In this document: positions 1,384 to 1,761 of the stretch, in pieces
Position numbering within the stretch: the stretch's first letter is position 1
Layout of the letters: every line of letters begins with the position of its first letter
DNA from: Nitrosarchaeum sp.
Lineage (GTDB): Archaea; Thermoproteota; Nitrososphaeria; Nitrososphaerales; Nitrosopumilaceae
Assembly (NCBI GenBank): GCA_023265135.1
Contig: JAHFUM010000004.1
Coordinates: 92,422-113,295 of the forward strand
Direction: 5' to 3'
DNA: 20,874 nucleotides
The notes under the pieces: generated by a model
Seen by the model: only the letters and a program-made list of their open reading frames with translations
What the model was told of the DNA's origin: nothing
Databases searched by the model: none
Translations under genes and position numbers: made by a program

Positions 1384-1761
1384 ATGAAAAAGACAGATGC
1401 ATTACACAAAGAAATAGAGACAATCAAAAAAGAAATAGAATCACTTGAGACCTTTCGTCCTACTTTTCAAACAAAGAAATTTCTAAGACAGTTAATTGGC
1501 GAACGAATGAACATAGAAAATCAAATTAGAAAAATATTTTCTAGACAAAAATCAAAAGAAGAAGAAAAACAGAGTAGACGAACAGAAGCAAACAAGAAAC
1601 GCAGTCAAAAGATGAAACGTGTGTGGAATTATTTTAGAGCAATTCAAAAAAACTATTTGCCACACATGTCAGCCAAAGAACTTCGCTCTCAATTTTCCAA
1701 ATTCAAAAAAGGATTAGAAACGGATGTATCTGAAATAATTTGGAGGAATCCTAGTCCATGA
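1384..1761 (+). CDS. Small lysine/arginine-rich coiled-coil protein coupled to pPolB; homolog of 17866-18204
   Basis: The ORF track starts at TTG 1381, with ATG at 1384. The stop overlaps the pPolB start (ATGA at 1758-1761). The C-terminal block KMKRVWNYFRAIQKNY...ELRSQFSKFKK...IIWRNPSP aligns with KMRRYHNYIRQIRNNF...QIRSQLSRRKK...VIWQNPSP in element B. Confidence 0.7.
   Translation: MKKTDALHKEIETIKKEIESLETFRPTFQTKKFLRQLIGERMNIENQIRKIFSRQKSKEEEKQSRRTEANKKRSQKMKRVWNYFRAIQKNYLPHMSAKELRSQFSKFKKGLETDVSEIIWRNPSP

Follow-up and report, generated by a model that had tools for sequence, protein, structure and literature searches.

A small basic gene directly upstream of the family-1 casposon DNA polymerase is a candidate terminal protein gene with an invariant penultimate serine

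Introduction

How replication of family-1 casposons is primed has been a matter of hypothesis since 2014, when Krupovic et al. proposed a terminal protein (TP) role for the gene position preceding the protein-primed-type DNA polymerase (pPolB), TP genes typically being located directly upstream of pPolB (PMC4046053). A survey from 2019 still listed the upstream genes of family-1 casposons as uncharacterised (PMC6563490), and the available part of a 2024 structural study of TPs (PMC11161782) contains no casposon TP model. We found no published assay of any casposon pPolB or TP, no published priming residue or structure model for the gene preceding pPolB, and no report identifying any archaeal TP or linking residue. 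The DNA analysed here, a 20,874-nucleotide stretch from Nitrosarchaeum sp. (the window), carries two copies of this gene pair and raises the question of whether the small gene of each pair encodes the protein primer and, if so, which residue would be used.

An earlier note on this DNA, made from the sequence alone, had put the small gene forward as a TP candidate. That proposal stands as the best reading, being supported by linkage to pPolB and by the phi29-like nature of the polymerase, and we consider it fairly probable that the small gene encodes the TP (i.e. the protein primer) of the family-1 casposon; it is not new, both the gene itself and the TP idea being already in the literature since 2014. 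New here are the finding that the linkage is one-to-one, the naming of a candidate residue, the near-absence of TPR2 from the polymerase and a lead concerning the haloviruses His1 and His2. The question thereby becomes one that a single assay of the two proteins and a single point mutation could address.

Two tandem casposons at the aEF-2 gene

Two family-1 casposons, elements A and B, stand in tandem in the window, next to the 3' end of aEF-2. Pfam searches identify a stand-alone Cas1 (PF01867) and a protein-primed-type PolB (PF03175) in each of them, and the hallmarks of the family, i.e. terminal inverted repeats (TIRs) with a target duplication at the typical aEF-2 3' end site, are present. 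The principal features are as follows.

1384-1761, + strand: small basic gene of A, TP candidate, long subtype, 125 aa
1753-1755, + strand: Ser124 codon AGT, the invariant penultimate Ser and predicted priming residue of A
1758-3632, + strand: pPolB of element A, 624 aa, PF03175
8857-9966, - strand: Cas1 (casposase) of element A
10492-10510: copy of the aEF-2 target sequence between A and B; the right TIR of A ends just before it
10511-10595: left TIR of element B, limits approximate; partner arm at ~20531-20611
11059-12132, + strand: Cas1 (casposase) of element B
17240-17509, + strand: conserved 89-aa gene in the replication operon of element B, not detected in element A
17506-17835, + strand: conserved 109-aa gene, less favoured alternative as the TP gene; no counterpart detected in element A
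17866-18204, + strand: small basic gene of B, TP candidate, short subtype, 112 aa
18196-18198, + strand: Ser111 codon TCC, the invariant penultimate Ser and predicted priming residue of B
18183-19961, + strand: pPolB of element B, 592 aa, with a TPR1-like insertion and TPR2 as a short hairpin
20612-20630: target copy at the 3' end of the aEF-2 gene, which is on the - strand and extends beyond the window

Element B has its own Cas1 and both TIRs inside the window. Element A, of ~18.5 kb, spans C2 ~84400-102916 (window -8022 to 10495), its left end lying ~8 kb upstream of the window; its TIRs are imperfect (~78% over 63 nt) and its cas1 has the opposite orientation to that of B. The target copy at the far left end of A has diverged, which suggests an insertion of greater age. 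The contigs contain no end-to-end or empty-site joint, an absence that proves nothing. aEF-2 is a documented target of family-1 casposons, and their tandem insertion in ef-2 has been published for N. adriaticus NF5 (PMC6563490). The two elements share their type, aEF-2 target, tandem layout and gene position with the published NitAR1-C1, NitAR2-C1, NitSJ-C1 and NitNF5-C1/C2 (PMC4046053, PMC6563490), and our matches to the small gene include homologues from N. adriaticus, N. sediminis and Nitrosopumilus sp. SJ, in the same position preceding pPolB. Element A differs from the published elements in being without the other two small conserved genes.

Several further observations concern the elements as such. 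Both contain a non-coding tandem repeat: in A a 35-nt AT-rich unit (1-121, running past the window) upstream of a divergent gene, and in B a 21-nt unit (20128-20245) between polB and the right TIR; these are possible binding-site arrays. The cargo of A (3657-7728) comprises a 612-aa protein with DUF4062 and a STAND-like NTPase and, after it, a helical protein of 752 aa; the two correspond to different regions of the PADLOC PDC-M54A models, which suggests an anti-virus sensor split in two. The cargo of B (13215-15907) comprises a PIN domain gene, a ParB and HTH gene, a 179-aa partner and, on the other strand, a PAPS-reductase-like gene that matches SspD (E 6e-34). Short matches to the element B TIR occur on contig C14 at ~13300-13340 and ~33490-33580, a contig with neither pPolB nor the small gene at these sites; they are possibly remnants or non-autonomous elements. 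A scan for bacterial-type promoters, which do not apply to archaea, was empty.

The small basic protein family

Both ORFs described in the earlier note are present on the + strand, together with the C-terminal pattern quoted there, the basic character (pI 10.3 in A and 10.5 in B) and the overlaps with the pPolB start, which amount to 4 nt in A (ATGA; polymerase ATG at 1758) and 22 nt in B (ATG at 18183). The polymerase is in the -1 frame relative to the small gene in both elements; the overlap suggests that the two genes are translationally coupled. The two small proteins are 37% identical over 108 columns (pair E 7e-19) and belong to a genuine family: searches retrieve 128 and 57 close homologues, clustering at 50% identity yields 80 clusters, and the hosts are Nitrososphaerota, mostly Nitrosopumilaceae. 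One family-1 casposon contig (L001) is filed in a Chitinophaga MAG; with a length of 6.5 kb and 66% identity to the archaeal protein, it is probably misbinned. The patterns used found no relatives in IMG/VR.

In an AlphaFold model of the small protein (pLDDT 90.8), the N-terminal residues 2-45 form a helical hairpin, which is followed by a long helix spanning residues 50-78, by two short helices and by a tail that is not helical. Fold searches with this model gave nothing significant against PDB and BFVD, only generic helical-hairpin matches over residues 1-48 (Z up to 7.1) in VIA, and, in the Atlas, two unnamed Nitrososphaerota clusters that are probably the family itself; feature searches of the Atlas returned no result. 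Sequence searches against Pfam, PHROGs, NCBIfam and PDB gave coiled-coil noise only, apart from a faint match to a PHROG DNA polymerase (E 0.04).

One-to-one linkage to the polymerase

TPs are encoded beside pPolB or fused to it, and the earlier note had recognised that its proposal would fall if the gene were absent from most related pPolB casposons. Instead, the gene precedes every full-length related pPolB that we examined. Among 99 family matches in genomes and metagenomes, the 96 with >100 nt of 3' DNA (several of these loci being duplicates) all have pPolB directly downstream and always in the -1 frame, with an overlap of 22 nt or 4 nt in nearly all; since the pattern by which these loci were found contained the tail motif, they are informative on linkage and codons but not on how well the motif is conserved. 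In the reverse direction, all 13 full-length pPolBs found in 401 genomes of the phylum carry the small gene upstream, the other five polymerase matches being fragments without a 5' end, and the family profile recovers exactly those 13 loci and none elsewhere in the same genomes. Distant members of the small-gene family likewise adjoin the polymerase. Distances between the small proteins correlate with those between the polymerases (rho 0.77), which reflects co-inheritance only.

The other two conserved upstream genes, encoding 89 and 109 aa, were not detected in element A or in the related elements L015, L017 and L018, where the small gene and the polymerase make up a unit of two genes that follows a divergent gene; the small basic gene is thus the only universal companion of pPolB in the sample. 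Being inherited together with the polymerase is compatible with an essential cofactor of any kind.

An invariant penultimate serine

Conservation was assessed in 60 divergent cluster representatives of both subtypes that reach the C-terminal region, chosen irrespective of the residue letter. The Ser of the W-x-N-P-S-P tail is present in all 60 (59 aligned and one by eye), compared with 54 for the W, 57 for the N and 52 for the P. The next best conserved hydroxyl positions are Ser62 (45/60) and Tyr71 (36/60, often Phe), leaving the penultimate Ser (S124 in A, S111 in B) as the only invariant hydroxyl residue. Among 176 closer homologues it is missing in two, both without the C-terminal region. 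Its codon is TCN in 102 cases and AGY in 10. The use of both codon types together with the variability of the overlapped polymerase residues implies that selection acts on the amino acid of the small protein. The last residue of the tail is itself variable (Pro, Ala, Gly, Leu or extensions).

In the AlphaFold model the Ser is flanked by Pro and lies after the last short helix, in the non-helical tail (pLDDT 63 for the last residues). According to the available part of PMC11161782, known linking residues belong to loops that are unstructured and close to Gly or Pro, not always with acidic neighbours, and a conserved Ser, Thr or Tyr in an unstructured, Pro/Gly-containing stretch is what that part of the study would lead one to look for in a TP; the casposon tail fits this description. 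In phi29, replacement of the linking Ser232 by Thr or Cys is not tolerated (PMC4974454), which matches the absence of Thr at the casposon tail position. These likenesses are specific, albeit circumstantial. That the small protein is a TP and also primes from this particular Ser is a joint prediction to which we give roughly an even chance; an invariant Ser in a conserved tail can also be kept for binding or as a target of modification.

The partner polymerase

The earlier note had argued that Exo I begins too close to the polymerase N terminus for a fused TP domain. The Exo I Asp is indeed residue 39 in A and 38 in B, which leaves no room for such a domain, and none is found at the N terminus of pPolB in either the sequence or the model. 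The model (pLDDT 90.5) matches phi29 polymerase best (E 4e-17, TM ~0.53), compared with ~0.40 for cellular PolBs. The distance from motif A to motif B is 126-130 residues, compared with 134 in phi29, and a beta-rich block at ~290-367 occupies the place of TPR1, the TP-binding subdomain, TPR1 being assigned here by position. By contrast, TPR2 is almost absent: there are 20 residues at its position in 48 of 53 sequences and 21-24 in the rest, forming a tiny hairpin in the model, compared with 55-64 residues in His1, His2, PRD1 and LCBv1; ABV and Rhodococcus phage P19 are also short there. Correspondingly, motif B and the catalytic Asp, which is residue 457 in the pPolB of element B, are 48 residues apart, versus 66 in phi29 and 81 in PRD1. 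We found no published note of a near-absent TPR2 in casposon pPolBs. A complex prediction for pPolB of element B and the small protein, each entered as an alignment, gave a score of 0.00 and a mark of 0.32 and counts neither way.

The first Asp of motif C is replaced in the casposon polymerase and the KxY motif reads KxRG. The earlier note had considered de novo priming without a protein, as in some PolB relatives. Primer-independent PolBs (piPolBs) are defined by a KH-x8-KTRG motif together with TPR1 and TPR2 (PMC5695915). The casposon enzyme is unlike them in having a phi29-like fold without that motif, i.e. no KH, KxRG only and a reduced TPR2. Casposon pPolBs, piPolBs and the His2 polymerase all have an RG-type motif and lack the first Asp of motif C, and the His2 genome carries terminal proteins (PMC4284463; PMC7221443); as the His2 polymerase combines both changes with TPs on its genome, neither change is diagnostic of de novo priming, which the sequence of the casposon pPolB does not indicate.

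A proposed mechanism

By analogy with phi29, the small protein would bind the polymerase, probably at TPR1, while its basic helices would grip the excised element at its TIR end. [quoted passage not shown] The gene overlap may serve to keep the small protein and the polymerase in fixed proportion. With TPR2 nearly absent, strand displacement would probably be poor, which would be in keeping with the 2014 proposal of a single-stranded panhandle template or with reliance on a host helicase. Cas1 integration uses 3' ends, such that a 5' protein need not block strand transfer, removal being needed afterwards. The same gap with respect to removal is remarked upon for polintons in the available part of PMC11161782.

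If this is true, the family-1 casposons have a minimal two-component protein-primed system and provide another independent origin of TPs. If it is wrong, a pPolB-type enzyme without another universal partner primes otherwise, which is informative too.

Alternative roles for the small protein

In the main rival to the TP reading, the small protein is a non-covalent cofactor, i.e. a basic TIR or DNA binder docking on the polymerase via its C-terminal tail and acting, for example, as a loader or as a processivity factor replacing TPR2; priming would then fall to the primase of the host, to a hairpin 3' end or to the polymerase. A pI above 10 and small size suit such a role, the loss of most of TPR2 makes an external processivity factor plausible, the motif C Asp loss and RG-type motif are shared with primer-independent piPolBs, and the one-to-one linkage fits equally well. 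However, the same alterations of motif C and KTRG occur in the polymerase of His2, a virus whose genome carries terminal proteins all the same (PMC4284463, PMC7221443), and the KH of the piPolB motif is absent; a docking tail should, moreover, tolerate Thr or Ala somewhere, whereas 0/60 divergent clusters do so, and no other universal gene remains as the TP. We regard a cofactor role as a serious possibility, but an unlikely one.

It is very improbable that a different gene, such as the 109-aa gene, encodes the TP with the small basic protein as an accessory. The 109-aa gene product has no family match; N63, L66, T89, S94 and R103 are near-invariant in its 57 close homologues, and near-invariant Thr89, Ser94 and Ser61 could in principle provide a hydroxyl. 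That homologue set is, however, far less diverse, so that its invariance means less, and the gene is undetected in element A, L010, L015, L017, L018 and L127, all of which have intact polymerases. At a guess, it could encode a single-stranded DNA-binding protein. The -1 frame of the polymerase at all 96 loci and in both window elements might be taken to indicate a programmed -1 frameshift joining the small ORF to the polymerase, giving a TP-pPolB fusion as in polintons. This seems most unlikely, since the polymerase has a conserved start codon of its own, an ATG located at -21 or -3 in 95/96 loci and at -24 in one, and since no slippery run is conserved, the Ser-Pro codons varying; furthermore, element A has an in-frame stop two codons before the polymerase ATG, one distant member has a 15-nt gap in place of an overlap, and a search unrestricted in length gave no match >240 aa. 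As it is encoded across the start of the polymerase gene and mostly terminates in Pro-stop, the tail might function mainly in translational control, with Pro-stop pausing leading to re-initiation at the polymerase ATG and the rest of the protein being a DNA-binding regulator; given that it is the last residue that varies and the Ser that is constant, and that the motif is kept under two overlap geometries, we attach very little weight to this explanation.

Comparison with known terminal proteins

Returning to the TP reading, phi29 gp3 is likewise an elongated helical protein encoded by a separate gene directly upstream of pPolB, with a basic DNA-binding part and a strict Ser in an unstructured stretch. 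Several differences count against a TP. At 112-125 aa, the casposon protein does not reach half the length of the phi29 TP (266 aa) or the PRD1 TP (259 aa), and is strongly basic, unlike the phi29 priming domain, an electronegative DNA mimic (PMC4974454) of acidic four-helix structure in which Ser232 is internal. The phi29 polymerase has a full TPR2, the contact of that priming domain, which the casposon pPolB almost lacks, and motif C and KxY of the latter depart from the pPolB canon. To our knowledge, no TP primes from its penultimate residue. Profile comparison with gp3 gave E 0.10-0.15, and fold searches are uninformative for a small helical model of this type.

As described in the available part of PMC11161782, the PRD1, adenovirus and polinton TPs have a linking residue in a loop near Pro or Gly, similar to the predicted one here, and the PRD1 gene is also upstream; they have a little-finger-like fold of a four-stranded sheet with two helices, whereas the casposon model is without strands. 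Compared with the polinton group, the casposon small gene has neither the fusion nor a vOTU protease. The genes upstream of pPolB in ABV, LCBv1, MetSV and P19 gave no convincing profile match. Whether the family is an independently evolved TP class, i.e. the smallest stand-alone TPs (105-125 aa), all-helical, priming from the penultimate Ser of a free C-terminal tail and serving a polymerase without TPR2, is in our judgement finely balanced.

A lead in the haloviruses His1 and His2

The polymerases of His1 and His2 form the sister group of the casposon pPolBs (PMC4046053). His1 ORF11 (105 aa; L117:1879-2196) and His2 ORF15 (153 aa; L118:3418-3879) lie directly upstream of pPolB and match one another (E 2.4e-4, probability 44%, 0/100 shuffles) in viruses that are otherwise largely unrelated; they are probable homologues, and good TP candidates for His1 and His2. 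Both resemble the casposon small gene in position, size and a helical C-terminal half ending in a Ser tail, ORF11 ending IWQKYGSP, which is similar to the casposon tail. They differ from the casposon family in being acidic and in their N-terminal half, and their polymerases, unlike casposon pPolB, keep a long insertion at the TPR2 position. The casposon family aligns with ORF11 and ORF15 over colinear stretches of 48-53 C-terminal columns with weak statistics (E 0.005-0.07, probability 1-8%, 0-4/100 column shuffles), such that the connection is a weak lead and not a result. We accordingly rate as doubtful the wider proposal that the independent TP class includes the same C-terminal module in the His1 and His2 TPs, travelling with the archaeal pPolB clade. 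In two relatives of His1 (L122 and L123), an ORF of 46-61 aa lies between the ORF11-type gene and the polymerase.
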